Part shown: positions 4,025 to 54,073 of the stretch, piece by piece
Layout: each line of letters begins with the position of its first letter
Numbering within the stretch: the first letter of the stretch is position 1
Virus record (IMG/VR): IMGVR_UViG_3300027976_003475
Source: a virus
DNA length: 64,000 nt
Strand: one strand, 5' to 3'
The notes under the pieces: generated by a model
Database searches by the model: none
Told to the model about the DNA's origin: nothing
The model's input: only the letters and a program-made list of their open reading frames with translations
Program-made: the position numbers and the translations under genes

Positions 4025-4069
4025 CCCTCTACCTCCGCGGACGGCTGTACCGCGGACGGGCGGGAGCGG

Positions 4070-4581: not shown

Positions 4582-4626
4582 CCCTCTACCTCCGCGGACG
4601 GCTGTACCGCGGACGGGCGGGAGCGG

Positions 4627-5802: not shown

Positions 5803-6138
5803 TTACAGCGTTGCGGGGGGCGCGTCGAGCACCAGCACGGCCTGCGGCGCCACGACCAGCATTCGGAGGTGCCGCGGCGCCCGCGGCAGAAGCAGGCGCT
5901 CCACGACGCGCTCGACTTCGGCGCGGCCTTCTCCGCGGGCCGCCGCCGTCATCGCCGCGAGGGGCGCAGCGCGATCCGCGAGACCGATCTGAAAGTTGCC
6001 CCCTTGCACCGTCACGAGTCCCGTGTAGTCGTCGGGGTCGTTGGCGCCGACCATCGCCCACACCCGCGCGCACAGGTCTGCGAACACGGGGCGAAACTGA
6101 GGCGTCAGGTCTTCGATGCGGTCGAGCGTGGTGGTCAT
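5803..6138 (-). CDS. Hypothetical protein
   Basis: ATGA overlap; GAAGGG RBS. Confidence 0.55.
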   Translation of the reverse strand: MTTTLDRIEDLTPQFRPVFADLCARVWAMVGANDPDDYTGLVTVQGGNFQIGLADRAAPLAAMTAAARGEGRAEVERVVERLLLPRAPRHLRMLVVAPQAVLVLDAPPATL

Positions 6139-7670: not shown

Positions 7671-7894
7671 TGCTCGCTCCGCAGGAGCTTCGTGCTTATC
7701 ACGACGGGCAAGTCCACGCCTTCAAGGTGCCAGAACTCCACGCCGCCGTTCGGCAGCAAGTACCCCCACAGAAGCACCCACGCCCCGCCGACGCGGCGCC
7801 GAAACCACTGGAACTCCCGCAGCGGCAGGCATTGGTCGATCCACAGGAGCCACGCGCTAGGATGCCGCGGCGGGGAACGGTAGGGCGTTGTCAC
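7661..7894 (-). CDS. Small Trp-rich hypothetical protein
   Basis: GTG start; overlaps the downstream gene start. Confidence 0.4.
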   Translation of the reverse strand: MTTPYRSPPRHPSAWLLWIDQCLPLREFQWFRRRVGGAWVLLWGYLLPNGGVEFWHLEGVDLPVVISTKLLRSEQWP

Positions 7895-10900: not shown

Positions 10901-11741
10901 CCGTGGCGGGGTCTTTGCCCGTGGCAAATCCCATGTTTTTCAGTCCGTCGACCCCGACGTAGTTGCGAAAGAAGGCCATGACGTCGGGGAGGATCAGCTC
11001 GTACCCCCGTCCGCGTTTGCTGACGGCCAGTAGCATCATGTCGGGCGAGTAGGGCTCCGCCGCGATGCCGATGCCGTAGGGCGGCACGGGGAGGCCCAGC
11101 GCGGCCGGGTCGACCGTCGGGTACGCCAGCGCGACGGGGGCGCCTCCAGGCCCCGGCGCGTCCGCCGCGCTCTCTCCGTCGGCGGCCTTCTGGTACGCGG
11201 ACCATGCGCCGGAGGTGATCGCGAGCTTGCCGCGCCCCCGTTCCATGAGCGCCTGAGCGCCGTCGAGGTTGTGCGTCGCCCACGGGAGCCACTCGCCGCG
11301 CGAGCCCTTCCCCGAGCGAAACCCCCACTCCCGCATTTGCTCTTTGTTGCCGAACTTTCGGAAGATAGCGAAGATGTCGCCACGGATCAGGAATCCTCGC
11401 GGGCGCTCCCAATCCAGCAGGAACGGGTACTGACTGAGGGGTGCGGACGCGAGTATCACGCCATGCGGCGGGAACTTCGCAGACGGCGCCTCGACGGCTG
11501 GCGCTGTCGGGGCGCCCAGGCGCGCGCGAATGGCAAGCACCGCCTTGGTGGCGCCGCGGACCTTGGCGACGTCCGCGGGCCCGAGGTCCAGCGCGAAGAG
11601 CGTACGGTCCTCTACGGCGTCCACCAGCTCCATGCGGACGCTTCCGCCCTCGCTCATGTAGAGCCGCACGCTTCGCGTGGGGTCGAGCGCCACGTCGCTC
11701 AAAAGACGATCGGCGCCGTTGCGCTTGCGGGGCGGCTTCAT
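7932..11741 (-). CDS. SNF2/SWI2-family (SMARCAL1/HARP-like) helicase with N-terminal extension
   Basis: LIADEPGLGKT, VVAPASL, VVDEVHKIK, LTGTPMPN, GVGITLTRA, ELDWVPGNVSQAEDRVHRIGQ. Confidence 0.93.
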   Translation of the reverse strand: MKPPRKRNGADRLLSDVALDPTRSVRLYMSEGGSVRMELVDAVEDRTLFALDLGPADVAKVRGATKAVLAIRARLGAPTAPAVEAPSAKFPPHGVILASAPLSQYPFLLDWERPRGFLIRGDIFAIFRKFGNKEQMREWGFRSGKGSRGEWLPWATHNLDGAQALMERGRGKLAITSGAWSAYQKAADGESAADAPGPGGAPVALAYPTVDPAALGLPVPPYGIGIAAEPYSPDMMLLAVSKRGRGYELILPDVMAFFRNYVGVDGLKNMGFATGKDPATGKWLPWASNHPTGIAELMAQLKTDLYLTPRAWALFVADTGLGLAPGEVPRLTITRNVGHKGFTVGGPEWAVQGLKAPLKDLGFEPHGVRMIAATIVPVYTLIRSNLSAKFDIPDDIVAEAAALGSGIAGSAIATGETCGVLIAPPGKTYLPFQCPGIAYAMQRNGTLIADEPGLGKTIQALGYVNNRPDVDSVVVVAPASLLTNWKREAERWLARPFAIYVADDTEAPVPPWANFVIVNYEKLIDVEFKETDFGPVEQVHDVVLLPAVKRGDKLWYGVRNTVNGRVVPDVRFGREDKAREAALEFSRYGEPYRQTSVLGTQQTLSYWWEKRGRRSKAPQYELCDASWKPMRAAVLPDEHRGHSRRGDVLEGTPTKRVRPSLILRDLMAREWGLLVVDEVHKIKGSGQEQQKSSVSILGLQAYDKTTRRHSVTKPGLSQRSRARIYLTGTPMPNRVVEMWPYIHDLAPAVFDNFFAFAFRYCDPQRNSYTNGWEFKGASNTGELFELLRGTMMVRRLKRDVLKDLPAKMRQIVMLPSSILEDAGVDIDMEAEQYEALMEAAEGIRERMSAAIEAKDEAGYQAAAAELLKLPRETYHISEISRARRNIAVAKVPYVVEHVENLMENGIEAVVVMAHHHEVQNALVKAFTARFGAGSTVLHTGGLAPQAKDEAVVKFQGLDLGGGKSQPHDPKCRVFVGSILASGVGITLTRAHNLVFAELDWVPGNVSQAEDRVHRIGQTEPVLIQHLIVDGSLDSKLVEAIIEKQAHSTAVLDTARGAMTFDTEEPRRPDWYPRPDDETVVGGVRKPRKPRDGDDLSPEEWAVQVILQYARDKRSMNPLNPYDLSIIEHVVKRHAEGLSESKARAAVAVAIKIAGTAHRSIVRAGSPMRGPRNAVEVWASRGLSILSESDADLARYRNDMGFSAADSAIGHALEAKAMVGALRDDEWRMAVRIASRYKHTQVGLPPALDGTPKSNPRPRAPAAPPRRRGR

Positions 11742-12005
11742 CGGGCGACGCTATCACCCCGGCGGCGCGGGTGTCGATGGAGCTGCGATGGCGGCCGCAG
11801 TCGACGGTTTTTATTCCTGGCGGGACGCGGAGGAGGGCGGGACCGACATCCGCACGAAACGGCAAATCATTTACCGTTTCGTGCGTGCCCCGCCAGAGCG
11901 CGAACCCCGGCCTCAAAGTCAGGGCAACCGGCGCTGATGGTGCAGCGACAAAAAGTGCTATCCGTCACCGCCGCCGACCCTTCTAGCCCGCGTCGGAGAA
12001 CACCC

Positions 12006-13631
12006 ATGGTTTCGATAAAGTCGCTGTTCTGGCCGCAATCCGAGACGGAGCTTGCAGCTCTCGCGGTGGCCCTCGGAGCGCGTGACGTGCCCGGATGGTC
12101 GGACGCCGAGGAGGCGCTTGTGCGGGGGCTGCCCCCAGCCTCGAAGGCCCACGTCGGGGAGGCGCTGGCGAAGATCCGCGGCGGAGGTGACCCGCTCGGC
12201 GACACGTTCTGCACGTTGCGTAACTCCATCGCGCGCCGCTCTTCGGGCGCGACGTACACGCCCGAGCCGATCGTGTCGTCGATGATGGCGTGGGCCGCCT
12301 CCCACGGGCCGATCGCGCGCGTAGTGGACCCTGGTGCGGGCTCGGCCCGCTTCTCCGTCGCCGCGGGCCGCACGTTGCCACGGGCCGCACTAGTGGCCGT
12401 CGAGACGGACCCGCTGGCCGCGCTTCTCGCGCGGGCTCACCTCGCGGCAGCGGGCCTCGCGTCGCGCGCCTCCGTGCGCGTCGAGGACTACCGCGGCCTG
12501 TCGTTGCCCGAGTCCGCCGGGCGAACGCTGTTCGTCGGCAACCCGCCTTACGTCCGCCACCATTTGCTTGGACCGAAGTGGAAGGCGTGGATGACGGCGA
12601 CGGCTCGCAGCCACGGGCTGACGGCCAGCCAGCTCGCGGGCCTTCACGTCCACTTCTTCCTCGCCACGCTCGAACACGCGCGCCCTGGCGACCTGGGAGT
12701 GTTCGTCACGGCGTCGGAGTGGCTCGATGTGAACTACGGTCAGGTCGTGCGTGACCTGCTCTTGGGCGGTCTCGGCGGGCGCAGCATCCACCTCGTCGAC
12801 CCCAAGGCGATGCCGTTCCCCGACGCGATCACGACGGCTGCCATCACCTGCTTCGAGGTCGCCGCGAAGCCGACGTCGATCTACATGTGCAGCGTCGAGA
12901 GCGTGGCGGACCTCGCGGACCTCGGCGGGGGGCATCCTGTGCGCCGCGACCACCTCGCCCTCGCGCCCCGGTGGAGCGTGTTCACGAAGCCGCCCACCGA
13001 CCGGCGCGAGGGGTTCATTGAACTCGGCGAACTCTGTCGCGTCCACCGCGGACAGGTCACTGGCGCCAACGCCATCTGGATCGCTGGCGACCATTCGGCC
13101 TTCCTCCCGCACTCGGTTCTGTTCCCGACGGTGACGAAGGCCCGCGAACTCTTTAGCGCGGGGGCGGAACTCGCGGACCCCGCGGCGCTGCGCCGCGTGA
13201 TCGACCTTCCAACCGATCTGGACGTCTTCGAGAAGGACGAACGGCGGGCGGTCGAGAAGTTCCTGCGGTACGCCCGCGAGAAGGGCGCCCACGACGGCTT
13301 CATCGCCAAGCACCGCCGCGCGTGGTGGTCCGTCGGCCTCCGCGATCCCGCGCCGATCCTCGCGACCTACATGGCCCGGCGCCCCCCGGCGTTCGTGCGT
13401 AACCGAGCCGCGGCCCGGCACATTAACATCGCGCACGGGCTCTACCCGCGAGAGCCCTTGAGCGAGCGGGTGCTGCGGCGCCTCGCCGCGTACCTCTCCC
13501 ACGGCATCTCTCTGTCCCAGGGCCGGGTGTACGCGGGCGGGCTCACGAAGTTCGAGCCCAAAGAGATGGAGCGTCTGCTCGTTCCGAGCCTCGACGTGCT
13601 CAGTAGAGAGGAAGAGTCTGCCGGTGGGTAG
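12006..13631 (+). CDS. Orphan N6-adenine DNA methyltransferase (Eco57I/XamI-like class)
   Basis: GATYTP, VVDPGAGSARF (motif I), FVGNPPYVRH (motif IV); GGAG RBS; no adjacent endonuclease. Confidence 0.88.
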   Translation: MVSIKSLFWPQSETELAALAVALGARDVPGWSDAEEALVRGLPPASKAHVGEALAKIRGGGDPLGDTFCTLRNSIARRSSGATYTPEPIVSSMMAWAASHGPIARVVDPGAGSARFSVAAGRTLPRAALVAVETDPLAALLARAHLAAAGLASRASVRVEDYRGLSLPESAGRTLFVGNPPYVRHHLLGPKWKAWMTATARSHGLTASQLAGLHVHFFLATLEHARPGDLGVFVTASEWLDVNYGQVVRDLLLGGLGGRSIHLVDPKAMPFPDAITTAAITCFEVAAKPTSIYMCSVESVADLADLGGGHPVRRDHLALAPRWSVFTKPPTDRREGFIELGELCRVHRGQVTGANAIWIAGDHSAFLPHSVLFPTVTKARELFSAGAELADPAALRRVIDLPTDLDVFEKDERRAVEKFLRYAREKGAHDGFIAKHRRAWWSVGLRDPAPILATYMARRPPAFVRNRAAARHINIAHGLYPREPLSERVLRRLAAYLSHGISLSQGRVYAGGLTKFEPKEMERLLVPSLDVLSREEESAGG

Positions 13632-13698
13632 CAAGGGCGCGCGTCGCTTTCCGCTGGTCCGAGCTCGCGCCCGACCGGCGCGAGGGGTTCATTGAACT
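12997..13698. repeat. 28-bp direct repeat at 12997-13024 and 13671-13698
   Basis: ccgaccggcgcgaggggttcattgaact occurs inside the MTase gene and again just downstream of its stop. Confidence 0.9.
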
Positions 13699-13779
13699 TG
13701 GCGGTCACGCGACGGGACGCGACGTTTTCATGGCAGGCGGCAGGCTATCACGGCCCGTAAAAGCGGAGTACGTTGCGCC

Positions 13780-14184
13780 ATGGCGAACAGACGAGACGTG
13801 GCGCGCGCGCGCGCCGGGGCGAAGGACTTACGAGACGCGGACCTCCGGGGAGCTGTGCTCGACGGGCTTGATCTCAGCGGTACGGACCTCAGCGGCGCGG
13901 ACTTGAAGGGCGCGGACCTCAGCGACGCCCGGTTCGACAACGCCCGGCTCCGCGGCGCGAGCCTCCGAGGCGCGACTCTTACCGGCGCCAGCTTCGTCGG
14001 GGCAGACCTCCAGAACGCCGACCTCAGCGGCGCGCTCCTGATCGCAGCCGACCTCAGCGCGTCGGACTGCTTTCGAGCGCTCTTCCGCGGCGCCAAGATG
14101 ACGCACGCGAGGTTTCGTCACGCCTATTGGGCCGAGGCGGATTTCAGCGGGGCCACCGGCCCGGTCGCCGCGCCGGGCTCCTGA
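13780..14184 (+). CDS. Pentapeptide-repeat protein
   Basis: ADLRG/ADLSG/ASLRG/ATLTG repeats. Confidence 0.9.
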   Translation: MANRRDVARARAGAKDLRDADLRGAVLDGLDLSGTDLSGADLKGADLSDARFDNARLRGASLRGATLTGASFVGADLQNADLSGALLIAADLSASDCFRALFRGAKMTHARFRHAYWAEADFSGATGPVAAPGS

Positions 14185-14188
14185 TCGG

Positions 14189-14569
14189 TCATCGGGGAAG
14201 GCACACCTGCGCGCCGTCGTAGCGCGCCCGGCACTCGTAGCGCCCCGACGCACCGCTCCACTTGTCGCAGTCCGCATCAGCCACACAAACCGGCTCGCAG
14301 TAGGCGCGGCCCGACGGGAGCGCGGTGCAGAGCGCGCGCGCGCCATCGGGCATCGTCCCGCACGCGGGGCCGCCCACCTCGCAGGCGCCGAACGGCGGCA
14401 CCTCGCAGGCGCCCGCGGCACAGGTCATCCCGCCGCCGCACGTCCCGCAGGCGCGGCCGGTGTCGTCCAGCCCGCACGTCCAGCCGAGCGCGGCGCACTC
14501 GCGCGGCGCGTCGTCGGCGCATCCAAGCGCGAGCACCACGGCCATCAGCGCGAGCACCACGGCCATCAT
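14189..14569 (-). CDS. Cys-rich lipoprotein of myxobacterial type
   Basis: Signal peptide with LALGC lipobox; many Cys, including CGTCGGGMTCAAGAC and CVADADC. Confidence 0.7.
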   Translation of the reverse strand: MMAVVLALMAVVLALGCADDAPRECAALGWTCGLDDTGRACGTCGGGMTCAAGACEVPPFGACEVGGPACGTMPDGARALCTALPSGRAYCEPVCVADADCDKWSGASGRYECRARYDGAQVCLPR

Positions 14570-15009
14570 TCCCCCGGCTCCGTCAGCGCACCCGCCACCG
14601 GCCCGTCCTCAATCGACTCGGGCAGCGAGAGCTCAAATGTCTCGTCGTCGACCGCGTTCTCCAGCGTTTCGACATCCATCTCGGCGACCTCGTTCCAGCT
14701 ATCAAGAAATGCGCTGTACTCCTCGCCCTTTTCGCCCTCCTGCCAGCGCTCGCTGCGCTCGTCGAAGTGCTCCTGCGCGGCGTCACGGATAGCGGACGCG
14801 AACGCCTTGACGTCTTCGGCCGCGCTCGCCCAGGCGGCCCACGCCGCTTGGGTGGCGTCGCTGACCTCGGTCGGGCGACGCGGCGACTCGTCGGCCGCCG
14901 CCATGTCGTTCCACTGATTGACCAGCGGCTCCAACGTCTCGCGCGCCTGCTCCATGGCCTGCGAGAGCCGCTCCCACTCATTCCCTTGCACCCTGCTCAG
15001 TTTCTTCAT
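14566..15009 (-). CDS. Acidic helical hypothetical protein
   Basis: AAGGAG RBS; ATGA overlap. Confidence 0.65.
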   Translation of the reverse strand: MKKLSRVQGNEWERLSQAMEQARETLEPLVNQWNDMAAADESPRRPTEVSDATQAAWAAWASAAEDVKAFASAIRDAAQEHFDERSERWQEGEKGEEYSAFLDSWNEVAEMDVETLENAVDDETFELSLPESIEDGPVAGALTEPGE

Positions 15010-15137
15010 GCTGCTCCTTGCGCCGATACTACGCCGCCAAGGGTTCAACGGACGCCTCTCCTCGAAACTTCACACGCTCCCTGCATTTTCCGACCTGGGA
15101 GGTTTCCGGCGCCGACACCTCGCGATACGCTGCGCCC

Positions 15138-15509
15138 ATGTACGGTCGACGCGCTTCGGATTCTGCGCTCCTGCACGCCTCTTACGGCCACGTTCGCCCC
15201 GCGGCGGGAATGTGCGACGGGCCGAACCCGCCACCGGGATGCGCGGGCATGGTCACCCTGCCCTCCTCGCCCCCTGCCCCCGCGCCCACGGGGACGGGCG
15301 CGCGGGTGGTCACGCCGGAGCCCGCGCCGGTCACCAGCCTGCTCTGGACGGCGCTCCGCGCGGTGTCGGTCGGGGCAAGCGCCTACCACGGCACGCGGCG
15401 AAACGACTCCGTGGCGTGGGGCGTGACCTGGGGGCTGCTCGGGTGGTTTGCCCCGGTCATCACCCCGGCGGTCGCAGCCGCGCAGGGCTTCGGGAAGCGC
15501 CAGCGATGA
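15138..15509 (+). CDS. Small membrane protein (putative virion protein)
   Basis: AYHGTRRNDSVAWGVTWGLLGWFAPVITPAVAAAQGFGK hydrophobic C-terminus. Confidence 0.65.
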   Translation: MYGRRASDSALLHASYGHVRPAAGMCDGPNPPPGCAGMVTLPSSPPAPAPTGTGARVVTPEPAPVTSLLWTALRAVSVGASAYHGTRRNDSVAWGVTWGLLGWFAPVITPAVAAAQGFGKRQR

Positions 15510-18500
15510 TCCTCCGCAAGCGGAACAGCGAGGGGGGCGCGAAGGCGCTGGTAGACGTCGCGATCGACGCGGAGAGGTCGGTGCGTTTGCTCTCCAGCGA
15601 GGGCGCCGGTTTCATTGGCTACCCCCCGCGGGTGCAGCTCGTACGCACCGCGTCCGGGGAGCTGCTGCTCGACATTCCCCTCCACGACGCCACGACGGCA
15701 AGTGTCCGCGATGCGGTGGGCGCGATCATGCGCTTGCGCGCCCGCTTCGCCGCACCAGTCGCCCCTGACGCCACGGCCGCGCCGCTGTCTCCGCTGGAAG
15801 CCGCGATGCTCGACGCGAACGCCCGGCGCGCGTTCGCGGGCGCCTGGGACGCTCCTGCACCCTTTGGGCTGCTGCCACTGCGCGCCGACCGACACCCCGA
15901 CGGGGGCCTGCGGCTGGTGTGGATTCGCGTGGCCGTGCCCGAGGGATTCCTCGAACCGTTGGGGCCCAAGGAGCGCCGCGGCGAGACGGGGCATTTGAAC
16001 CAGAGCACCCTACCGCCGGGCTTCGTCGAGTCCCGCGCGACGCAGGAGACATGGTGGCCGGTCAAGATTGGCTCTCTCGATCCCTCGCCCGAGTGGCGCG
16101 AGGTGGCGAGCTACCGCACCCGGCCGTTTCCCGAAGATCCGCGCGCCTCGAAGACCCTTCACGAAACGCTCGACGACGCGGAGGAGCGCTCGGGTTACAA
16201 GCAACCGGCGAAGCTCCGCGAGGTGCGTCAACGCCACTGGCGCGGCGTGTCCTTCTACCTCTGGCGCCGCTTCCCCGTCGCGCCCGAGGTGATGCAGTCG
16301 TACCCGGACCTCGCGCAATTCTACGCGACCGACATGGTGGCGGCGCAGACCTTCGCAGAGAAGCGCGTGGAGACCGAAGCGCTCGACAACCCGGAGAACC
16401 CGGACGTGACGGTCGAATGGTCCGCGGAGTCGGGCCTGCTGATCCACACGCGCGGGAAAGACCCCGCCATCATGGCAGCCATCCGCGGGCTCCGCGTGGC
16501 GCGTTTCAAATGGTCGCGCACGATGGGCTGCTACTACCGCCCGCAGAGCGTGGGGGTCAGCGAGAGCACCGTGGACATCGACCGCGTGGCGGGCGAACTC
16601 CGCACCGCGGGCCTGACCGTCGCCGTCGACCGCGGCGAGGTGGGCAGCCTGGGGGATGCGAATGTCCGCCGTCAGGCACATAAATTCTGGCGGGCCGAGC
16701 GCTACGCGCAGCGGGGCGAGGCGGCGCTGGAGAAGGCCACCGGCTTCGAGACGCGCGCGGACGGCATCCGCGCGGACCTTCCCGTCGGGGCCCCGACGAA
16801 GCGCGCCGAGCGCGCGGAGGAGCGCGCCGAGCGCGCCGAGGCCAAGGCGGGCGATGAGCTCGCGTACGCAGGGCACGCGGCGTCGGTGTCGGAGAACCTC
16901 GCGCGCGTCGCCGCGGGCTACGAGACCACAGCGACCCTCACCCGGCGCGAGGCAGAGAAGCGCGCCGATGCGTTCGCGGCCCTCTTCGTCCACAAGGTCA
17001 AGGGCGCCGTCGGCGCGGCTCAACTCCGCAGCGACAAGACCGACAACCTCTCCGCGTACAGCATCTCGTGGGTGGTCGTGTACCCACCGGCGGCGGGCGT
17101 GTTGGGCATGGTGCGGTACGACGGGCGGGTGATCGAAGTCGCGGCGCGCGCGACGGCGAAAGTCGTCGAGCGGAACGAGTACCTGTCAGTGCGTAGCCTC
17201 ACCGCCACCGCCGTAGGAGGCCATAACGCTTACCGCGAAGACGTCACCGCCCTGGACGCGCAAGCGATCTACGACCGCGTAATCCAGGCGCTCCCCGGGT
17301 TCGTGGCCGCGCCCGCATCGGCGCGCATTCCCGCATCGGCGCTGGAGCTCGTGACCGACCTCGCGCAGTACGCCACGCGCCGCGCCGCGAAGGTGTCGGC
17401 CGCCGCGGGGCGGCCGGTGCAGTTTCGCGCGTACCCCCACAAGGGAGACGATCCCACCGCGAGCATCGGCTACTTCGGGGCGTGGAGTTACGAACTGTCG
17501 TATCAGATGCGGCAGGTGGACGGGCTTCGGTTCCGTTTCGCCCTCCACAAGTCGTCGGGCGTCTACGGGGCTCCGCGTGAGGACCGATTCACGACCGACG
17601 CGGTGGATTTCGCCGGGCTGTCGATCGAAGAGGCGTTCGAGTTGTTCCTGGCCGGGACGCGCGCGTTGTTCACGCAGACCCCGCTGGTGGCCCCGGCCGC
17701 GCGCAAGGTGCCGCGCCCGCGCGTCGCAGGGGCCTCGCGGGCGACGGCGCCGGAGCGGAGCGGCGTCAGCGGGGTCGAGGCGCGCGACGCCGCTGCGCGC
17801 GACGCCCAGGCCCGGCGCGCGGAGCTGGGGGAGGCATCGGCGGCGGTATCGGCGCAAGCGAGCGCGCGCCTGCGGAGCCTCCAGGCGTCGGCGGAGGCGG
17901 TCTCGTCGCATGAGCAGGCCATCGACCGGGCGAGGGGCGAGGGCCACACGGCGGGGTTCTACCCAACGCCGCCCACCCTCGCGCGCGCGATGGCGGAGGC
18001 GGTGGGCGTGCGGGCCGGTGAGCGGGTGCTCGAACCGAGCGCGGGCATGGGCGCCCTGGTCGAAGAGCTGGTGTCGCGCGGCGCCGCGGTCGACGCCGCG
18101 GAGTTCAACGAAGCGCGCCGCGCGTACCTGCGAGCCGCGTTCGCCGGGCGCGCGAACATTCTCGACGCGGAGGATTTTCTCGTGATGCCCCCGACCCCCT
18201 ACTACGACGCGGTGGTGATGAATCCGCCCTTTGCGGTCGAGGGGATGCGTCAGGCCGACGCGGTGCACGTCGAGCACGCGCTGCGATTCCTGCGCCCCGG
18301 CGGGCGCGTCGTGGCGCTCATGTCGCCGGGCTCCGTGGACGCCTCGACGGGGCGGCGCCGGGCGGCGCTCCACGCGGCGTTGCAGGGCTTCGGGGTGCAG
18401 TGGGTGCCCGTCGAGGCGGGGCGGTTCCGCATCAGCGGGACCGACACCCCCACGGTGATGCTGGTGGCGACCGCGCCGAAAGCGAACCGTCGTCCGCTCC

Positions 18501-18511
18501 GGCGCTGGTAG
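15506..18511 (+). CDS. Large DUF3560-like + C-terminal SAM-dependent DNA methyltransferase fusion (DarB-like)
   Basis: FKWSR..RAERYAQRGEAA..GIRADLPVG (DUF3560-like); GFYPTP, VLEPSAGMG, VVMNPPF. Confidence 0.8.
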   Translation: MILRKRNSEGGAKALVDVAIDAERSVRLLSSEGAGFIGYPPRVQLVRTASGELLLDIPLHDATTASVRDAVGAIMRLRARFAAPVAPDATAAPLSPLEAAMLDANARRAFAGAWDAPAPFGLLPLRADRHPDGGLRLVWIRVAVPEGFLEPLGPKERRGETGHLNQSTLPPGFVESRATQETWWPVKIGSLDPSPEWREVASYRTRPFPEDPRASKTLHETLDDAEERSGYKQPAKLREVRQRHWRGVSFYLWRRFPVAPEVMQSYPDLAQFYATDMVAAQTFAEKRVETEALDNPENPDVTVEWSAESGLLIHTRGKDPAIMAAIRGLRVARFKWSRTMGCYYRPQSVGVSESTVDIDRVAGELRTAGLTVAVDRGEVGSLGDANVRRQAHKFWRAERYAQRGEAALEKATGFETRADGIRADLPVGAPTKRAERAEERAERAEAKAGDELAYAGHAASVSENLARVAAGYETTATLTRREAEKRADAFAALFVHKVKGAVGAAQLRSDKTDNLSAYSISWVVVYPPAAGVLGMVRYDGRVIEVAARATAKVVERNEYLSVRSLTATAVGGHNAYREDVTALDAQAIYDRVIQALPGFVAAPASARIPASALELVTDLAQYATRRAAKVSAAAGRPVQFRAYPHKGDDPTASIGYFGAWSYELSYQMRQVDGLRFRFALHKSSGVYGAPREDRFTTDAVDFAGLSIEEAFELFLAGTRALFTQTPLVAPAARKVPRPRVAGASRATAPERSGVSGVEARDAAARDAQARRAELGEASAAVSAQASARLRSLQASAEAVSSHEQAIDRARGEGHTAGFYPTPPTLARAMAEAVGVRAGERVLEPSAGMGALVEELVSRGAAVDAAEFNEARRAYLRAAFAGRANILDAEDFLVMPPTPYYDAVVMNPPFAVEGMRQADAVHVEHALRFLRPGGRVVALMSPGSVDASTGRRRAALHAALQGFGVQWVPVEAGRFRISGTDTPTVMLVATAPKANRRPLRRW

Positions 18512-18523
18512 CCGCGGGGCGGG

Positions 18524-19486
18524 TTAGATCGCGACGCCGCTGGCGAGCACCCACGCGGCGCCCGTGTACCAGCAGGGCAGCGGCCCGCCCGCGTTGTCGG
18601 TGCAGAAGGCCATCATGCCCACCACCGGCGCCGCGAACGCCCCGGCGCCGCCGGTGATGTTCGCGGTGGTCCCTGCCTCGATCTGCAACCGGCTCGGCCG
18701 GACGAGGCCGGAGCCCTTCGGCACGAGGTCGAGGTTGATGTTCGCGCCCGTGCCCTCGACGGAAACCTTCGGGCTGACGACGCCGTTCTGGCCCGTAGAA
18801 ATCGTGATGTCCTGATCGCTGTCCGCCGCGAACGGGAAGCCCACCCGCCGCACACCGGCGGCGTCGAGCACCTCATCGAAATACGGGCGGATGATACCGA
18901 CGAGGCCGGAGCCCTTCGGCGCCAGCGCGAGCGAAATGTCCGCATCGGCCCCGTTCGCCGTCACGCTCGGCGGCGTCCCCGGCGCGTTGCCCGCGGTGAT
19001 GTCGACCCATGCGTCCGCGAGGGCGACGGAGTTGATGCCCGCGACCTTGGTGCCGTCCGCCGCGAGCAGCGCCGTGTCGATCCTGGGGTTGGTCAGCGTC
19101 TTGTTGGTCAGCGTTTGCGCCGTGGTCGTGGTCACCGCGCCCGCCGTCACCAGCAGCGCGAGCAGGTCGGCGTCGCTGATCGCGGCGCCGATGCCCCCGA
19201 CCCCGAGGCGGACGTTGGTGTCCGGCGCCGCGGCGTCCAGCAGGACGTCCGCCGGAGCGGCGGGAAGCTCCGCGACGCCGGTGGTGATGGCCTTGAACAC
19301 CGACACGTTCGAGCCTCCTTGGCCCTTCTGGTACAGCGCCACAAATCCCCCGTCGAGGTCTGCGACCACCAGGGCGAACGCACCCCGAGAGAAGGCCCGC
19401 CGTCGGGCGGCAGAGGCCATGACGGCCGCCCACGCCGTTTCGGTGTAGGTGTTTGAACTTCGCCAGCGCTGGATCGATTTCGTCAT
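18524..19486 (-). CDS. Putative spike/fibre (receptor-binding) protein
   Basis: AQTLTNKTLT motif and twice-repeated I.L.L.PKGSGLV, typical of fibre proteins. Confidence 0.6.
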   Translation of the reverse strand: MTKSIQRWRSSNTYTETAWAAVMASAARRRAFSRGAFALVVADLDGGFVALYQKGQGGSNVSVFKAITTGVAELPAAPADVLLDAAAPDTNVRLGVGGIGAAISDADLLALLVTAGAVTTTTAQTLTNKTLTNPRIDTALLAADGTKVAGINSVALADAWVDITAGNAPGTPPSVTANGADADISLALAPKGSGLVGIIRPYFDEVLDAAGVRRVGFPFAADSDQDITISTGQNGVVSPKVSVEGTGANINLDLVPKGSGLVRPSRLQIEAGTTANITGGAGAFAAPVVGMMAFCTDNAGGPLPCWYTGAAWVLASGVAI

Positions 19487-19556
19487 CTCGGCATCGTACC
19501 CGCTCCGTTTCGGGACACAAGGGAGGCGGGAATGATAGTGTTTGCGCCGGAGGGTT

Positions 19557-20123
19557 ATGGGTCATCACACGTCTCGATTCGTCGCATTCGACTGCGAAAC
19601 CACAGGACTTGAAGCGGACGCCCGTATCATCGAACTCGCCGCCGTGCGGGTGGACGTCCCGACGGGCATTGTGGTCGCACGGTGGCGAACGCTGGTGAAC
19701 CCGGAGGTGCCCATCCCGGCCGCCGCGACGAGCGTGCACGGCATCACCGACGCCATGGTGCGCGAGGCGCCCACGATCGCGGAGGCGCTGCGGGAGTTCC
19801 TGGCCTTCATGGCGCGCGGCCCGGCGGTGGCGCATCACGCGCGCTACGACGTGCAGCGGTTGACCTTCGAGGCGCAGCGCGCGGGCGTCGCGCTCCCCGG
19901 CAACGTCCCGGTGTACTGCTCGATCGACGCGAGCCGCGTCGCGTTCCCCGGTGAGCCCAGCCGCGGCTTGCTGAACCTCGCGCGAACGCTCGGGCTCCCG
20001 CGCGAGGGCGCATCGCATCGCGCGGGCGGCGACGCCGCGCTGGTCGTGCAACTCATGCTGCGCTGCTTTGCGGCGGCACCCCGCGACCTGACCGGCTACG
20101 CGCCCGCGGTCGGGTCGCTTTAG
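19557..20123 (+). CDS. DEDDh 3'-5' exonuclease (DnaQ/epsilon-like)
   Basis: VAFDCETTGL, VHGIT, VAHHARYD, HRAGGDA. Confidence 0.9.
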   Translation: MGHHTSRFVAFDCETTGLEADARIIELAAVRVDVPTGIVVARWRTLVNPEVPIPAAATSVHGITDAMVREAPTIAEALREFLAFMARGPAVAHHARYDVQRLTFEAQRAGVALPGNVPVYCSIDASRVAFPGEPSRGLLNLARTLGLPREGASHRAGGDAALVVQLMLRCFAAAPRDLTGYAPAVGSL

Positions 20124-21133
20124 CGCCCCTCGATGACAACCTCGGGCCACGGGTACGGCCCCGCGCCGTTGTTCAGAGCGTCGGGGTCAACGTGCTCGAG
20201 TTTCGCGAGCAGGTTTTCGTACCAGCGACGCGCGTAGAGCTGGCAGTTGTTGCAGTGCTGGTGTGTGCAGCCGGGCAGCGGCGCCGAATAGCGCGCGTCG
20301 AAACTCCACGCCGTCGAGTCCGCGCTCCGCAGGAGCTTCCACACTGGCAACCACGCCCCATATCGCTCCCACGGCGTTCCCCGGAGCGAGGTGCCGAGCG
20401 GGCGGTTACTGAGGGTCACGTTGGTCAGACCGTCGGTCTTGAACCCGAGCGCATGGAGCCGCAGGCCATGCTCCGCGAGGTCCGCAAGCATCATCGCCGC
20501 GCGAAGCGTCGCGGAGCGGCGGCAAATGGAACCCACCCCCACGACGGGCTCGCGCCGGAGGTCGATGCCCCGCGCGTAATACATTTCAAGGTGCCGCTCG
20601 TGATCGCCAATGCCCCAGCCCTGGAGCACCGGGGCCCACGGGACGTCAGGCGCGATCGTGCGGAGCTCGATCAGCGAGTCAATCGTGAGTTGCTGGTGCC
20701 GCTCGACGTCGAGCCCGGTGAGCGAGAGCACGCACTCCTCGGTCATCCAATCCATGATCGCGGCCCACTCCAGGCCACCGCACTCCTGCATGAACCGGCG
20801 CACGCCATCGGCGTAGCGGCGCGCGTCGTACGTCCATCGCCCTTCGGTCGACAGCTCCTTGAACCCGCCGCTGTCGAGGCACCACTTGGTCTGCGCGGGG
20901 CGGAGCGAGCGCACGTCTTGCAACTCGCGCATCTGCCGGTAGCTGATGAAGAGCGGGACACCCTGCATCGCCGGATCGAAGAGCCAATGCGGCTTGTGAA
21001 CGCCCAGGTAGAACGTGAACGGCCGGGCGTTGGGTGAGAGCATCGGCGCCACCCGCCGCGCCGGGGGCGGCGGAGGGGAGGGGCGGGGCGGGGTCGCCCA
21101 CTCGAAAAGCATTTGATCTGTGCGGCGCTTCAT
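20120..21133 (-). CDS. dpdA: DpdA-like / tRNA-guanine-transglycosylase-fold protein (7-deazaguanine DNA insertion)
   Basis: LDSGGF, IMDWM, PVLQG, VGVGSIC, LHALG, ADSTAW, terminal HCNNC. Confidence 0.75.
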   Translation of the reverse strand: MKRRTDQMLFEWATPPRPSPPPPPARRVAPMLSPNARPFTFYLGVHKPHWLFDPAMQGVPLFISYRQMRELQDVRSLRPAQTKWCLDSGGFKELSTEGRWTYDARRYADGVRRFMQECGGLEWAAIMDWMTEECVLSLTGLDVERHQQLTIDSLIELRTIAPDVPWAPVLQGWGIGDHERHLEMYYARGIDLRREPVVGVGSICRRSATLRAAMMLADLAEHGLRLHALGFKTDGLTNVTLSNRPLGTSLRGTPWERYGAWLPVWKLLRSADSTAWSFDARYSAPLPGCTHQHCNNCQLYARRWYENLLAKLEHVDPDALNNGAGPYPWPEVVIEGR

Positions 21134-21148
21134 GGACGATGCCGTTCT

Positions 21149-21544
21149 CTACCGATGCAGGTGTAGCGGGCGGGGCCACGCGCCCGCGCCGAAGGTCTGC
21201 ACCGCATCGGCGGCCGTGTAGCGGATCGGCTTGCCCAGGATCACCGCGGCGAGGTCGTCGGCGCGCTGCTCCGAGCCCGGCAGGTGACGCGACGCATCGG
21301 CGGCGTGTCCCAGCTCGTGCGCGAGGAGGGCCCCTACGACGTCGCGGCCCCGCTTGAGCGCCCGCGCGAGGAGGTGCACGTCCCCGTTGACCATCCACGC
21401 GAGGTCACGCCCCGCACAGGGCGTCCAGGCGTCCGGGCAGGGTCGGCGGACGATGTAGAGCTGCGCCCGAGACACCGCCGGAAAGAGCGACGCGAACGCC
21501 TCGCGCTGGCGCCGGAACACGGCTCGTGTCTCATCGAAGGTCAT
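21149..21544 (-). CDS. Small HExxH zinc-metallopeptidase-like protein
   Basis: LLAHELGH..EQRADDLA. Confidence 0.6.
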   Translation of the reverse strand: MTFDETRAVFRRQREAFASLFPAVSRAQLYIVRRPCPDAWTPCAGRDLAWMVNGDVHLLARALKRGRDVVGALLAHELGHAADASRHLPGSEQRADDLAAVILGKPIRYTAADAVQTFGAGAWPRPLHLHR

Positions 21545-22665
21545 CGCCGCTTGGCGTTGGGCTTGGGCTTGTGCGCGGCGCGGTGGGCCGCCAGCGCCGC
21601 CGCGCCAGCGGGCGTCAGCGTCAGGCGGTCCTTGGTGGCAGTGAGCAGACCTGCTTTCTGGCACCGCCGGAGGTGCGGCACGCTCGCGGGCTGCACGCGG
21701 TTCGGCACGCTCTGCGAGTCCCCGAAGAACTCTGCCAGCACCCACACGTTGAGGTCCGTCGGCGTTCCCGCGGCCGGGCGGGGCGCCGCGGCCGGGCGGG
21801 GCGCCGGGGCGTAGCGGGGCGCCGCGGCCGGGCGGGGCGCCGGGGCGTACCGGGGCGCCGCCCCCGGCGCGGCGTGGGGGTTGTGCTGCGCGGCGCGGTG
21901 GTCCGCCAGCGCCGCCGCGCCAGCGGTCGTCAGCGTCAGGCGGTCCTTGGTGACCGTGATCAGACCTGCTTTCAAGCAACGCTGGAGGTACGGCCGTTTT
22001 GTGGGCTCCATGCGGTTCGGCACGCTCTGCGCGTCCCCGAAGAACTCGTCCAGCACCCACACATAGAGGTCCGTCGAGGGCGCCGGGGCCGGGCGGGGCG
22101 CCGGGGCCGGGCGGCCCCATTCTCTCTCAGCCGCGCGGTTCGCCGCGGCCCGTTGGCGTATCGCGGCGTCCATGGCGTCTTCGCCGCGGGACGCCGGGCG
22201 GGGGTCGGGTGCGTACCGGGGCGACGGGGCCGGGCGGCCGGATTCTCTCGCAGCCTCGCGGCGCATCGCGGCGTCCATGGCGTCTTCCCCACGGCGCATC
22301 GCGGCGCCGATGGCCGCTTCCTCGCGGCGCGACTCCTCGCGCGTCCGCGCGTCCTCCCGCGCGATCATCTCGACGCCCGTAGGCGTCAGGTGGAACTGGT
22401 GACGGGACTCGATGACGTACCCCACCTCGGTCGCGCGCCGCAGCGGCTCGACGTCGTACGCAAGCACCCGCTCTCGCTCGACGACGTGCGCGCGGCCGTA
22501 GAGGAAGAGCGTGTGCAGACTCAGCTTGTCGTCCGCCGACAACAGTGGGGGCGCGACGAGGAGCGGTGACCGCTCGGGCGCCGGAGGGCGACGGGGCATG
22601 GCCGACTGCATCGGGGGCGCGTCGAAGAGCGACGGCTGCGCGGGGGCGTAGGTGCGACGGGGCAT
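21541..22665 (-). CDS. Protein with repeated winged-helix-like modules and Pro-rich linkers
   Basis: Two near-identical VWVL.EFFGD.QSVPNR..KAGL.T.TKDRLTLT.AG units; ends KPKPNAKRR. Confidence 0.65.
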   Translation of the reverse strand: MPRRTYAPAQPSLFDAPPMQSAMPRRPPAPERSPLLVAPPLLSADDKLSLHTLFLYGRAHVVERERVLAYDVEPLRRATEVGYVIESRHQFHLTPTGVEMIAREDARTREESRREEAAIGAAMRRGEDAMDAAMRREAARESGRPAPSPRYAPDPRPASRGEDAMDAAIRQRAAANRAAEREWGRPAPAPRPAPAPSTDLYVWVLDEFFGDAQSVPNRMEPTKRPYLQRCLKAGLITVTKDRLTLTTAGAAALADHRAAQHNPHAAPGAAPRYAPAPRPAAAPRYAPAPRPAAAPRPAAGTPTDLNVWVLAEFFGDSQSVPNRVQPASVPHLRRCQKAGLLTATKDRLTLTPAGAAALAAHRAAHKPKPNAKRR

Positions 22666-22689
22666 GGTGCGAACCTACCCCGACCCGCG

Positions 22690-22870
22690 CCCGGACGAAA
22701 GGTGCCGCGCCCGTTGAGCGGGCGGGCATCGCGCTTCCGGCGATGTACGCGCTCGGCTTCGACCACAACAACTGCCTCGGGTGCGTCAAGGCCACGTCGG
22801 CGGGCTACTGGAACCGCACGCGAAGACTCTCCCCGAGGTGTTCGCGGGGCGTTCTACCGGCGCGCGGTAG
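22690..22870 (+). pseudogene. Relic of a phage PAPS-reductase-like/PP-loop gene
   Basis: VERAGIALPAMYALGFDHNNCLGCVKATSAGYWN, then an apparent 1-nt frameshift that would restore LFPEVFA; N-terminal part absent. Confidence 0.65.
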
Positions 22871-23663
22871 CGCGGGTGCGGCGGGCGGGCGCGATCTCGG
22901 GCGGGGTCAGCCGCACCGTGGGCGCCGGTGGCGCTGCTACTGGCGCGCGGGAGAGGTCACCGAGGGTGTACGCGGCCTCGTCGCTTCCCACCGGGTTGAT
23001 GTGCGCGAGGTTGGGGCTGATGGCCCACCCGGCGCCGCCCTGGCCGTCCGTCGCGATCATTTGCGACCCGGCGAAGCTGTGATCGTAGGCATCGGCCGCT
23101 TCATGCTGAAGCCGCGTCGCGGCCTCGCGGATGTTTTCGACCGTGCCGTTGTGGGGCGCCTGGAGCACGTCAATGGCGAAGCCGTCGCGCGAGCGCAGGA
23201 AATAGTACACCGTGAACGGCGCGTGACCCGGGCGACGCGAGGGCGCGGGGGCGCGGGGGCGCGGGGGCGCGAGCGCAGCGGGCCGCGCGTTGCGCTTTAC
23301 GGTCGACTCTCGCACCGCATCGCGCACGCCCTGATTGAACGCGGCGAGGAGGGCCTTGTCGTCCCCGATGTCGTAGCGATACGGGCTTCCCGACGCGCCC
23401 ATGTTCCAGAACGCAAGCTCTTGGACGGCGTACAGGAACGAGGCGGGGGACGGCTTCGGCAGCTTGTACGCGCCCGTGCTGTGGCGCTCATGGAGCTCCT
23501 GCTCTGACCGCAGCTCCACCTTCACCGCCTCGCGCCCGAACTCCGCCCCGAGCGAGCGCGCGACCGAGCGCGGGGCCGTGAACCTCACAGGGGCCGCATG
23601 GGGCACCTCGACGGCGAAAACTCTCTGGCCGTACTGCCCCGCCCTGTGTCCGTTGCTCTGCAT
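22854..23663 (-). CDS. Two-domain hypothetical protein split by a KRN/Pro linker
   Basis: ATG overlaps the desulfurase stop; STVKRNARPAALAPP junction. Confidence 0.65.
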   Translation of the reverse strand: MQSNGHRAGQYGQRVFAVEVPHAAPVRFTAPRSVARSLGAEFGREAVKVELRSEQELHERHSTGAYKLPKPSPASFLYAVQELAFWNMGASGSPYRYDIGDDKALLAAFNQGVRDAVRESTVKRNARPAALAPPRPRAPAPSRRPGHAPFTVYYFLRSRDGFAIDVLQAPHNGTVENIREAATRLQHEAADAYDHSFAGSQMIATDGQGGAGWAISPNLAHINPVGSDEAAYTLGDLSRAPVAAPPAPTVRLTPPEIAPARRTRATARR

Positions 23664-24877
23664 CACCGCACCCTGTTCTTTCGCGCGCACTCCACCAGAA
23701 TCCCCGCCGCTTCTTCGACTTGAGCCGCGTCGTTGCAGGCGCCCAGGCCCACACGCACAATCGCGCCGTCATCCGGCGCCCCGAGGGCCTCCAGCACATG
23801 CGAGCGCTGCCCCCCGAGGGCCTTGCAGGCGCTCCCGGCGGACACGCACACGCGCTCGCGCGCGTCGGCGTGGAAGCCCGCGGAGTCGATGCCCACCAGG
23901 GTCACGTTGAGGTTGTGCGGGAGACGCACCAGACGCACCAGCCGCTCCGGCGCGGCCCCTTCGTCCCAGCACGGCGGGTCGATCGCGCCGTTGACGCGCA
24001 CGATCTCCCCCAGGCCCGATTGCAGCCGCGCGAGCAGGAGGTCGCGCAGGTAGCGCAGCCGCGCCGCCTCGGGCCGCGGCCCGCGGGCCCAGCGCTCCGC
24101 CATCTCGTCGCACGCCACGCCGAACCCGGCGATGGCGTGGGCGTTGATCGTACCCGCGCGGCGGCCTCGCTCCTGGCCGCCGCCGAGGGTCTGCGGGTCG
24201 AGGAACTCCCACACCCGCGGGCGTGCGTAGAGAGCGCCCACGCCCGTCGGGCCGTAGAGCTTGTGAGCACTCATGGCGGCGGAGTCGATGTTCGCGAGGT
24301 CGAACGGCACGCGCCCGAAACTCTGGCAGAGGTCCGCGTGCAGGAGCACTCCACGGCGTCCGCAGAGCTCTCCCACCTCGTTGATGGGATTGATGCTGCC
24401 CACCTCGTTGTTCGCGCCCTGGAGCGCCACCATGACCGTCTGCGGGCGCAACCGGCGCTCGACGCACCCAACGCGCACGGCGCCGCCGTCGCGCACCGGC
24501 ACCAGCTCGAAGTCGATCTCACCGCGCGCCGCGGCGCGCTTCAACGGCGCGAGGATGGAGCTGTGCTCCGCGGCGCCCGCGAGCACATGCGGCTTGGCGA
24601 GTCCGCGCGCCTTCGCGCCTGCAATCGCGCCCATTACCGCGAGGTTGTTGGCTTCGGTCGCGCCGCTGGTGAACGTCACGTCTGCGGGATCACAGGCCCC
24701 CAGGAGCGACGCGACCGACGCGCGCGCGCAGTCGATGCGCTCCGCCGACGCGCGCCCCGCGTGGTGCGCGGACGAAGCGTTGCCGCACTGCTGCATCGCA
24801 GCAAGCACTGCTGCTTGAACGCGCGGCGAGGTCGGGGTGGTTGCGTTGCAGTCGAGGTAGATCAGTGGTCGGGGCAT
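23663..24877 (-). CDS. iscS: Cysteine desulfurase (IscS/NifS/DndA family)
   Basis: YLDCNATTP, FTSGATEANN, ANNEVG, SAHKLYGP (PLP Lys), GGGQERG, VSAGSAC (catalytic Cys). Confidence 0.93.
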   Translation of the reverse strand: MPRPLIYLDCNATTPTSPRVQAAVLAAMQQCGNASSAHHAGRASAERIDCARASVASLLGACDPADVTFTSGATEANNLAVMGAIAGAKARGLAKPHVLAGAAEHSSILAPLKRAAARGEIDFELVPVRDGGAVRVGCVERRLRPQTVMVALQGANNEVGSINPINEVGELCGRRGVLLHADLCQSFGRVPFDLANIDSAAMSAHKLYGPTGVGALYARPRVWEFLDPQTLGGGQERGRRAGTINAHAIAGFGVACDEMAERWARGPRPEAARLRYLRDLLLARLQSGLGEIVRVNGAIDPPCWDEGAAPERLVRLVRLPHNLNVTLVGIDSAGFHADARERVCVSAGSACKALGGQRSHVLEALGAPDDGAIVRVGLGACNDAAQVEEAAGILVECARKNRVR

Positions 24878-24886
24878 TGGTGGGGT

Positions 24887-25975
24887 CTACCTCCAGCGGC
24901 GCGCGCGGTGGGGAGGGTGGTCGCGTTCAAGGCCCACCTCCAGGCCGACGTGTTCGGCCACCGTCGCGCCCATGTCGCCGCTGTTGCGCTTCGGCGGGAC
25001 GTCGAGAGTGATGATGTTCGTGGTGAGGTCGAGCGTCGCGACGAACGGCGTCGGCGGCTCTTGATTTGTCCAGCGAAGCGGCATGTCGAGGGCGACGTCG
25101 GCGCGGCGGTCGTGCTTCGCGGCGTCGTTGAACGCGCCCGTCAGCCATTCCTTTACCTCGCGCGGTTCGAGGCGCAGGTAACCGAAGATCGCCGACCAGG
25201 GCATCGCGCCCGCCGCGCGCGGCGTGAGCATCACCGTCCACGATCCCCACGGCACGATTACCGGCGAGGTAAAGTCGCGCGCCGTAACGTGGTAGCTGCT
25301 CGGGAGGTACTTGTACCAGCGATAAATGGCGTCGAGGCTCCCGAGACGGCGCGGCTCGACGTCCGGCACTGCGAAGGTTCGCGTGAACGCGGCGTGCTGC
25401 GCCGCCGCCGCGGCCCGGTCTGCCTCGCGCCGTTGAATCTCGGCGAGGAATGACGCGAACGCGCCGGGCGGCGCGACGTGCGCGTCGAGCGGCACGCGAG
25501 CAAGGTCCGCCATGCCCCGCGCGGCGGCCTCGACGCGGCGCTCCATGTACGAAACGCGGCGCTCGGCTTCGGCGCTCTGGCCCGTCGCGATCAGGTGCGC
25601 GAGCTCCTCCTGTCCGGGGTACTCGCCCGCAATCGCGGTCGTGGTCGCGACGTCCGGGTCACCGTGCGGGTCATCGGGCGCGAACTCCCAGGCGCGGCGC
25701 CACGCCGCTTCGACCCGCGCCCACAACGCGCCAGCGTCCGGGGCCCCAGCAGGCCCAGGAGCGCCCGCCGCCGCGGTGGCGGGCGCCGTGCGCGCCACGA
25801 CCCGCAACGCGGCACCAAGGGCGGCGCGGAGGGCGGCAACGGTCACCTCAAAGGGGATCGCGAACACCTCGCGGTGCTGCGCGCGATCGAAGAGCACCAG
25901 CCGCGCGGTGTCGCCGTCGACATGGAGCTGCAACGCGCGGCCCGCGTCGAGCGGAACCTCTTGGAGCAGGCCCAC
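24887..25975 (-). CDS. Hypothetical protein carrying the shared N-terminal domain
   Basis: N-terminus aligns with those of the SNF2 and DUF3560-MTase proteins; PPKRN near the C-terminus. Confidence 0.65.
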   Translation of the reverse strand: MGLLQEVPLDAGRALQLHVDGDTARLVLFDRAQHREVFAIPFEVTVAALRAALGAALRVVARTAPATAAAGAPGPAGAPDAGALWARVEAAWRRAWEFAPDDPHGDPDVATTTAIAGEYPGQEELAHLIATGQSAEAERRVSYMERRVEAAARGMADLARVPLDAHVAPPGAFASFLAEIQRREADRAAAAAQHAAFTRTFAVPDVEPRRLGSLDAIYRWYKYLPSSYHVTARDFTSPVIVPWGSWTVMLTPRAAGAMPWSAIFGYLRLEPREVKEWLTGAFNDAAKHDRRADVALDMPLRWTNQEPPTPFVATLDLTTNIITLDVPPKRNSGDMGATVAEHVGLEVGLERDHPPHRARRWR

Positions 25976-33382: not shown

Positions 33383-33481
33383 GGAGATCCTCGTCGTGTC
33401 GTTGAGCAGCCGAATGGTTCGGGCCATATCGGCGTGAAGGGTAGCGCGACCCTTTTCAGAAATGCAAGCGGGGTGCGCTGC

Positions 33482-54044: not shown

Positions 54045-54073
54045 ACTGCTCGGCTGGCGTGCGACTATGCGCC

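Follow-up and report, generated by a model that had tools for sequence, protein, structure and literature searches.

The occurrence of one N-terminal segment on several different proteins of a single genome raises the question of what the segment does for its bearers. The question is posed here by a 64,000-nucleotide stretch of DNA, the IMG/VR virus record IMGVR_UViG_3300027976_003475 (hereafter, at its full length, referred to as the window), through the genes for an SNF2-family helicase, a DNA methyltransferase (MTase) fusion and a third protein whose body belongs to no known family. An alignment made by eye had suggested that the three proteins begin with the same domain of about 75 residues, which was taken for a portable targeting or ejection adaptor of DNA-acting enzymes (hereafter the original prediction). 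Two matters are considered below, namely whether the three segments are homologous and what a shared segment could do in an element of this kind.

Homology of the three N-terminal segments

Genes were called by third-position G+C (GC3) and then compared with the gene calls on identical metagenome contigs; the G+C content is about 72% along the entire window. The shared domain is called the module, the short extension before it the leader, and the motif that ends the leader the tag. The genes and their parts, with the methods by which they were recognised, are as follows.

7932-11741, minus strand: SNF2-family helicase gene, 1269 amino acids, with leader, tag and module at the N-terminus (translation, Pfam, PHROG)
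11718-11741, minus strand: SNF2 leader with terminal RKRN, residues 1-8, MKPPRKRN (KRN 9-mer at 11726 in frame)
11508-11711, minus strand: SNF2 module copy, residues 11-78 (BLASTP against the MTase copy; AlphaFold2)
15506-18511, plus strand: MTase fusion gene, 1001 amino acids, with leader and tag, module, about 700 amino acids unassigned to a family and a C-terminal DNA methyltransferase domain (translation, identical contigs)
15506-15526, plus strand: MTase fusion leader with terminal RKRN, residues 1-7, MILRKRN (KRN 9-mer at 15518 in frame)
15539-15757, plus strand: MTase fusion module copy, residues 12-84, with a 6-residue insertion in the beta2-beta3 loop
24887-25975, minus strand: third protein gene, 362 amino acids, body without known family (GTG start 4 nucleotides past the stop of the upstream gene)
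25781-25975, minus strand: third protein module copy, residues 1-65, beginning at the first residue, without KRN leader (two-sequence hidden Markov model, shuffles, hhalign)

Leader, tag and module thus lie within residues 1-84 in all three proteins. The true start of the MTase fusion is 15506 (MILRKRN...) and not the upstream TTG of the long open reading frame (ORF), because the identical metagenome contigs have the same start called, giving 1001 amino acids. The SNF2 protein, which nine metagenome contigs carry in identical form, matches SNF2-rel_dom (E 8.9e-24) and Helicase_C in Pfam and the DNA helicase family phrog_62 (E 2.4e-82). Between its module and the helicase core, residues 96-340 (10722-11456, minus strand) hold two copies of a repeat of about 75 residues (BLASTP E 7e-14), with a degenerate third copy possible. 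In the MTase fusion, residues 811-996 match phrog_9133 and phrog_15406, annotated 'DNA methyltransferase' (E about 1e-30), the Pfam match to MTS is weak, and tblastn gives matches in 220 phage records. The label DUF3560, which had been attached to this protein, is not confirmed: PF12083 was not detected, Pfam giving no family at E <= 1 for residues 290-1000 of the ORF translation and no DUF3560 at E <= 0.01 for the whole protein.

The N-termini of the SNF2 and MTase proteins are 43% identical across 84 residues (BLASTP E 6e-15), and the third protein is not significant in pairwise BLASTP against either of them (E 1.9 and 22). A hidden Markov model (HMM) built from the SNF2 and MTase segments alone and searched against all six-frame ORFs of the window matches the third protein at E 2.5e-5 (20.2 bits, model positions 15-89 to residues 28-95), with the runner-up at E 0.25. 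In a composition control the third-protein segment scores 23.3 bits against a shuffle maximum of 16.2, none of 5000 shuffles reaching its score. The collected homologs were divided into three subfamilies and compared profile to profile with hhalign, the comparison by which the original prediction had proposed to be judged; the alignments run end to end, each with a probability of at least 97.7% (98.1%, E 7.5e-14; 98.8%, E 5.4e-17; 97.7%, E 2.5e-12). The end-to-end register and the position of the module are identical in 24 proteins, and the subfamilies inside one element have diverged to 30-45% identity. No fourth copy was found in the window with a richer profile.

Since BLASTP, HMM, shuffle control and hhalign agree for all three proteins, one N-terminal domain common to the SNF2 helicase, the MTase fusion and the third protein can be regarded as confirmed at the level of sequence, as had been predicted, with its extent corrected to about 65 residues; the RKRN tag likewise stands directly before the module in the two proteins for which this had been noted, SNF2 and MTase. 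A mere chance or compositional likeness in the Ala/Arg/Leu-rich proteome of a 72% G+C genome, without any common domain, would agree with the strong compositional bias of the genome and with the insignificant pairwise scores of the third protein, but is refuted by the SNF2-MTase BLASTP match, the independent HMM with its distant runner-up, the shuffles, the hhalign results and the constant register and position in 24 proteins, and retains a negligible probability.

Bodies, leader and predicted fold

When 1.84 billion representative proteins were searched with a profile, 22 matched at E <= 1e-3, two of which (P0023 and P0027) are spurious beta-repeat matches with four stretches each, of YVTN/Ig-like type. 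The members of the family are all metagenomic in origin, and the module is N-terminal in every genuine match except P0017 (23 of 24 homologs overall). The bodies that follow it include, besides SNF2 helicases and MTase fusions, two UvrD-type helicases, a 151-residue protein with a helix-turn-helix (HTH) of LuxR/sigma-region-4 type (P0024), a 1091-residue protein matching Pfam DarA_C with 32.1 bits against a cutoff of 27 (P0028), a 1361-residue protein matching phrog_2319 and phage proteins, one of them annotated RecT-like (P0026), and many bodies without known family. In P0028 alone was DarA_C above threshold; the window proteins that were scanned, a subset of the ORFs, showed neither DarA_N nor DarA_C. 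An ortholog of the third protein, P0013, is 59% identical to it across the body.

Three copies of the module are present in the window and in each of the related contigs L001 and L008, and six in L010. L001 is a close relative, its SNF2 protein being about 90% identical across the aligned region, and its module bearers are the SNF2 and MTase proteins and a 456-residue protein without counterpart in the window. The copies of L008, which is part of a 125-kb contig, lie within 22 kb and those of L010 within 23 kb. One of the L010 copies belongs to a gene overlooked by the gene caller (8115-9400, plus strand), which has a KRN leader and module at its start and high GC3 to about 9400.

Comparison of the window with L008 provides direct evidence of bodies replaced or lost behind a retained head, since a UvrD-type helicase with leader, tag and module (L008 10001-12433) occupies the locus of the SNF2 gene of the window (7932-11741), with the flanking genes conserved, and a 142-residue protein made up of tag, module and a short tail stands at the position expected for the MTase fusion. 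The module is a portable N-terminal unit on different, mostly DNA-acting proteins. To this extent the adaptor idea of the original prediction is supported; a targeting of the cargo to capsid or membrane, and its ejection, are conjectural.

The leader is found in 19 module proteins, where it has 4-24 residues, ends in (R/K)-K-R-N (variants K-H-N and K-P-N) and stops 3-9 residues before strand 1 of the module; the untagged module proteins start 1-8 residues before strand 1, without leader. The tag of the SNF2 protein is kept in its orthologs P0004, P0005, P0009 and P0010, and that of the MTase fusion in P0007 and P0008, with the variant RKHN in P0015. Tag and module are separable, because P0017 has an N-terminal tag and its module at residues 218-282. 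The likely coding ORFs of the window contain 10 occurrences of KRN, where 0.87 would be expected, and of the 11 9-mers that encode it, 10 lie in the coding frame; the signal is therefore one of the protein level, and a DNA-level motif was rejected. KRN also occurs near the C-termini of other proteins, and three times in a basic membrane protein encoded beside the capsid-like gene described below; P0013 has K-S-N in place of the C-terminal KRN of the third protein. More generally, KRN (variants KHN, KPN and KSN) followed by a small residue was observed near the termini or in the basic tails of proteins without a module, a pattern seen also in L010. The sites of KRN-type motifs are listed below.

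Window: 6135-7721; 22854-23690; 24887-25975; 32657-33427; 53870-56404
L010: 13273-14919; 20943-21653

The basic leader is probably a signal separate from the module, and it is a reasonable guess that KRN marks a trimming site, because tagged proteins, once trimmed, would start like the untagged members.

An AlphaFold2 model of the SNF2 module, based on a seven-sequence alignment, has strands at residues 12-18, 23-29, 34-41 and 46-55 followed by a helix at 58-76, with predicted local distance difference test (pLDDT) scores of 87-90 in the core; the RKRN-containing start of the protein is disordered in the model (pLDDT < 50). The module is confidently predicted to be a small folded beta4-alpha domain of four strands and one helix, and is followed in nearly all members by an Ala/Pro-rich linker. 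Its best conserved positions are L14, D20, R23, R26, L27, R36, L39, R62 and R74 (SNF2 numbering), and the charge of its core is about neutral (median +1, range -7 to +4), some members being acidic. Searches with the module gave no match in Pfam (E <= 10) or PHROGs, nothing in a PDB sequence-profile search and no usable match in the ESM Atlas searched by features. Fold searches of the PDB with Foldseek, of VIA wide, AlphaFold DB clusters, BFVD and the ESM Atlas gave weak generic matches only, to beta-meanders and small uncharacterised proteins, the best being AcrF1 (E 0.027) and beta-propeller blades (Z <= 7), none of them significant. As judged by these searches, the module is outside MuF, DarA_N and every catalogued family.

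The element and its gene neighbourhood

The sequence of the window was found, in a search of sequencing runs, in freshwater DNA metagenomes only, no RNA run being listed among those that contain it. Its gene products include DnaB-like and DnaC-like proteins, DpdA, a class-V aminotransferase of cysteine desulfurase type, an RNase T-like exonuclease and an Eco57I-like methylase; the endolysin-like matches are weak, as is a match to LPD25 in a neighbouring 846-residue protein. This is a mobile element from fresh water, uncultured and high in G+C, and probably a virus; a novel virus is plausible.

The third protein gene lies inside a 22-kb co-directional block, running from 42169 down to 20120, that also holds capsid-like and membrane-protein genes. 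The block and other features of the window are as follows.

40016-42169, minus strand: transglutaminase-like protein, heading the run of transmembrane-protein genes
32657-40019, minus strand: transmembrane proteins with basic, Arg/Lys-rich tails and repeated RKHNG-/KRNG-type motifs, co-directional with the capsid-like gene
31624-32559, minus strand: 311-residue beta-rich protein, candidate capsid protein, with the highest GC3 in the window
20120-24877, minus strand: DpdA in one operon with the class-V aminotransferase (cysteine desulfurase type) and the third module protein
13780-14184, plus strand: pentapeptide-repeat protein of ADLSG type (by eye), between the SNF2 and MTase genes
14566-15048, minus strand: very acidic protein of 160 residues, between the same two genes
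3910-4209 and 4467-4766: 300-nucleotide direct repeat, 99% identical, with a spacing of 557 nucleotides
59911-59999, minus strand: single tRNA-Pro (CGG) gene

Contigs of 64-125 kb carry 23 homologs of the 311-residue protein, which is 75% identical to the copy on the 125-kb contig of L008. Its AlphaFold2 model is a beta-sandwich (pLDDT 67.6), and it is considered an unproven candidate for the capsid protein. A scan of 185,579 species genomes (GTDB) for the capsid-like family found none. Searches of PDB sequences with three large ORFs for structural proteins returned nothing meaningful, and a 729-residue ORF gave no tblastn match against phages. On the identical contig L004, the gene adjoining the left end of the window (L004 23563-23810) encodes a 784-residue protein that has a precomputed Pfam match to Peptidase_C2 (calpain-like) and is a candidate processing protease.

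Among the module genes of L010 is a gene for a PAPS-reductase-like protein (14916-16805; tblastn against phages E 1e-51), which, together with the DpdA operon, hints at a sulfur-dependent DNA modification. Pentapeptide-repeat proteins and very acidic proteins, the two kinds encoded between the SNF2 and MTase genes, are both known as DNA mimics in other systems. By their gene lists, the otherwise identical contigs L003 and L004 differ by one copy of the 300-nucleotide repeat unit.

Possible functions of the module

A small N-terminal domain, tethered by a linker and present on three to six different proteins per element, is the typical pattern of an address or docking unit, and the module is therefore most likely a portable docking or address unit. 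The reading favoured here, held tentatively and with less than even confidence, is that it serves co-delivery, docking varied cargo to one element-encoded partner, with a transmissible particle as the most likely destination. The element family would append the module, through the flexible Ala/Pro linker, to the N-termini of unrelated, mostly DNA-acting proteins; all bearers would engage one common element-encoded partner; and the helicases, the MTase fusion, the DarA_C-type and other proteins would accompany the DNA to the next host. The element would thereby resemble an 'unbundled' polyvalent protein, with the same address on each effector and no giant fusion. The leader may be trimmed after KRN, whereupon the proteins would begin just before strand 1, like the untagged members. 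We infer the binding of a protein partner, the particle as destination and the cutting after KRN; the near-neutral charge of the module core speaks more for protein docking than for general DNA binding. Particle loading is supported by the N-terminal position and the conserved leader, by the recurrence of the leader tripeptide on proteins of the structural-looking block, by the place of the third protein gene in one co-directional block with the capsid-like and membrane-protein genes, by the precedents of T4, P1, MuF fusions and polyvalent proteins discussed below, and by the kinship of the cargo to delivered phage proteins, some cargo families being of a kind associated with anti-restriction proteins that virions deliver. 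This kinship extends to DarA_C, to phrog_1926, annotated 'released from the phage upon host infection' and matched by two L010 module proteins, and to the MTase domain type, which occurs also inside phage protein families of 1259-3925 residues; one of the phage matches of the MTase fusion in tblastn is annotated 'putative virion structural protein'.

Several findings weigh against co-delivery in a particle, which is itself hypothetical. Pfam and PHROG scans of window proteins detected no terminase, portal, tailed-phage capsid or conjugation genes, no packaging enzyme or known maturation protease, and no structural hallmark. The structural matches of the 311-residue protein are mostly jelly-roll virus capsids, none of them significant (best Z 3.8, Foldseek E >= 0.18), and no relatives of the SNF2 protein or of the capsid-like family turned up when IMG/VR was scanned with them. 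Tag and module are each also found in the absence of the other, so that the two need not serve one process, and small proteins of hardly more than tag and module (97-181 residues) are also found. The UvrD, RecT-like-related and LuxR/sigma-r4-like cargo suits intracellular roles, the SNF2 core is similar to ordinary replication-type helicases of phages, and the conserved arginines R23, R26, R36, R62 and R74 could bind nucleic acid or an acidic hub. To our knowledge, moreover, the known capsid-targeting signals are short peptides and not folded domains.

Docking within the infected cell fits the data almost as well. The module would then recruit the DNA enzymes of the element to a common DNA-bound platform, such as the replisome, an SSB-like (single-stranded DNA-binding protein) acidic tail, a clamp-like protein or a genome-end protein, and nothing would be packaged. 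Wherever the cargo has a recognisable domain, it acts on DNA, and the helicase type of the SNF2 core, the RecT-like relative of P0026, the HTH of P0024 and the place of the third protein in the DpdA/cysteine desulfurase operon all suit such a platform, as does the presence of the element's own DnaB-like and DnaC-like proteins; the conserved arginines on an otherwise neutral module would suit an acidic partner. No hub was identified, however, and a hub would leave unexplained the conserved N-terminal KRN leader as well as the presence of DarA_C, phrog_1926-type and many large family-less proteins in one array. The hub interactions known to us, those of the clamp and the SSB tail, use short peptide motifs of the client and not a domain of 65 residues. 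Such recruitment is rated as possible and somewhat unlikely.

The modules could instead bind each other and so join helicase, MTase and other bearers into a non-covalent, DarB-like MTase-helicase machine, which is quite unlikely. LuxR-type HTH proteins commonly require an N-terminal dimerisation domain, a beta4-alpha unit could pair by sheet extension, and the SNF2 and MTase proteins both weakly match phrog_11801 (2269 positions). The same module heads an MTase and a helicase, and these two activities are fused in DarB of phage P1 (PMC9024508). A co-fold of the SNF2 and MTase modules, run without controls, scored 0.01 and counts neither for nor against self-association; no positive sign of self-association was obtained. 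A divergence to 30-45% identity inside one element is more than mutual recognition would lead one to expect, and six different cargo proteins in one element, as in L010, would make an ill-defined complex.

Direct binding of nucleic acid, in which the arginine-bearing beta-sheet and the basic RKRN arm would hold DNA (for example, the modified DNA of the element or its ends) and position the enzymes on it, is very unlikely. The five conserved arginines and the basic leader would suit this role, as would the DNA-acting nature of all identified cargo. The beta4-alpha topology agrees with that of PC4/Whirly-type binders of single-stranded DNA, and the sole PC4-family match in Foldseek is weak (5a4n, E 0.17, TM-score 0.47/0.56, root-mean-square deviation 4.1 over 66 columns). 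Nevertheless, the module core is about neutral and in some members acidic, neither fold nor sequence searches matched it significantly to a DNA-binding family, and the fused proteins already have DNA-binding domains of their own, such as the HTH and the helicases.

The logic of the favoured co-delivery reading appears closest, by analogy, to that of capsid-targeting signals and MuF-type carrier domains. In phage T4 the internal proteins IPI-III and Alt carry a capsid targeting sequence, a leader that is cut by the maturation protease at a short motif shared by structural proteins. In phage P1 the first 30 residues of DarB suffice to direct a reporter into the capsid (PMC9024508). In both phages an N-terminal element loads unrelated proteins, including anti-restriction enzymes, into the particle; in the present family the module and the short leader with its conserved terminal tripeptide are also N-terminal, and the tripeptide KRN recurs in other proteins of the element. 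The T4 and P1 signals, however, are peptides of 10-30 residues, whereas the module is a predicted folded domain of 65 residues that would stay on the cargo; the two are unrelated in sequence, and the present system is known from genes alone, without detectable tailed-phage genes.

MuF fusions and polyvalent proteins are delivered together with DNA (Iyer et al. 2017, PMC5512222). The MuF domain, as in SPP1 gp7, resembles the module in being a folded N-terminal domain placed before many effector domains, which it is thought to carry into the phage head. The module is much smaller, occurs in several copies per genome and not one, and is accompanied by no visible portal-terminase system; no Pfam match to MuF was found at E <= 10 on the module-bearing proteins or the module alone. 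The polyvalent proteins, including DarB and DarA of P1 (PMC5512222), share with the present family the repertoire of DNA MTase, SNF2 helicase and DarA_C, the embedding of this MTase domain in giant phage proteins, and a presumed early action on incoming DNA. They differ in being single covalent polypeptides, whereas here separate proteins have a common module and the MTase fusion alone is multi-domain, combining a polyvalent-type MTase with about 700 unassigned residues; the SNF2 protein has one catalytic core and repeats. The domains of polymorphic toxin and secretion systems (LXG, PE/PPE) are alike in that one N-terminal domain heads many bodies, with cargo exchanged behind a constant head; they route toxins through cellular secretion, whereas the bearers here are DNA enzymes of a mobile element in which no secretion genes were seen, and Pfam and PHROG searches gave no sequence similarity between the module and trafficking domains of these types. 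What sets the module apart from capsid-targeting signals and MuF-type domains is the presence of a small folded domain, as predicted, on several separate proteins of one element without tailed-phage genes.

Whatever its function, the module constitutes a new and very rare domain family, of about 20 clusters in 1.84 billion proteins, and offers a clear example of cargo being swapped at a fixed locus while the head stays constant. It is conceivable, and considered unlikely, that these high-GC freshwater elements of about 70 kb form a new lineage of tailless, membrane-containing bacterial viruses that load DNA enzymes by means of a 65-residue address domain and trim the leader after KRN; if so, a system for loading protein cargo would be seen for the first time outside the tailed phages, and polyvalent proteins would have a non-covalent counterpart. 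Should the module be an address domain, mobile elements would have a second means of co-delivering or co-localising a changing set of DNA enzymes, with one small folded head on each protein in place of a giant fusion. The module would then also be a handle for finding the cargo of this uncharacterised group of elements, any module-headed protein being a candidate, and might be used as a compact tag by which foreign proteins are loaded.

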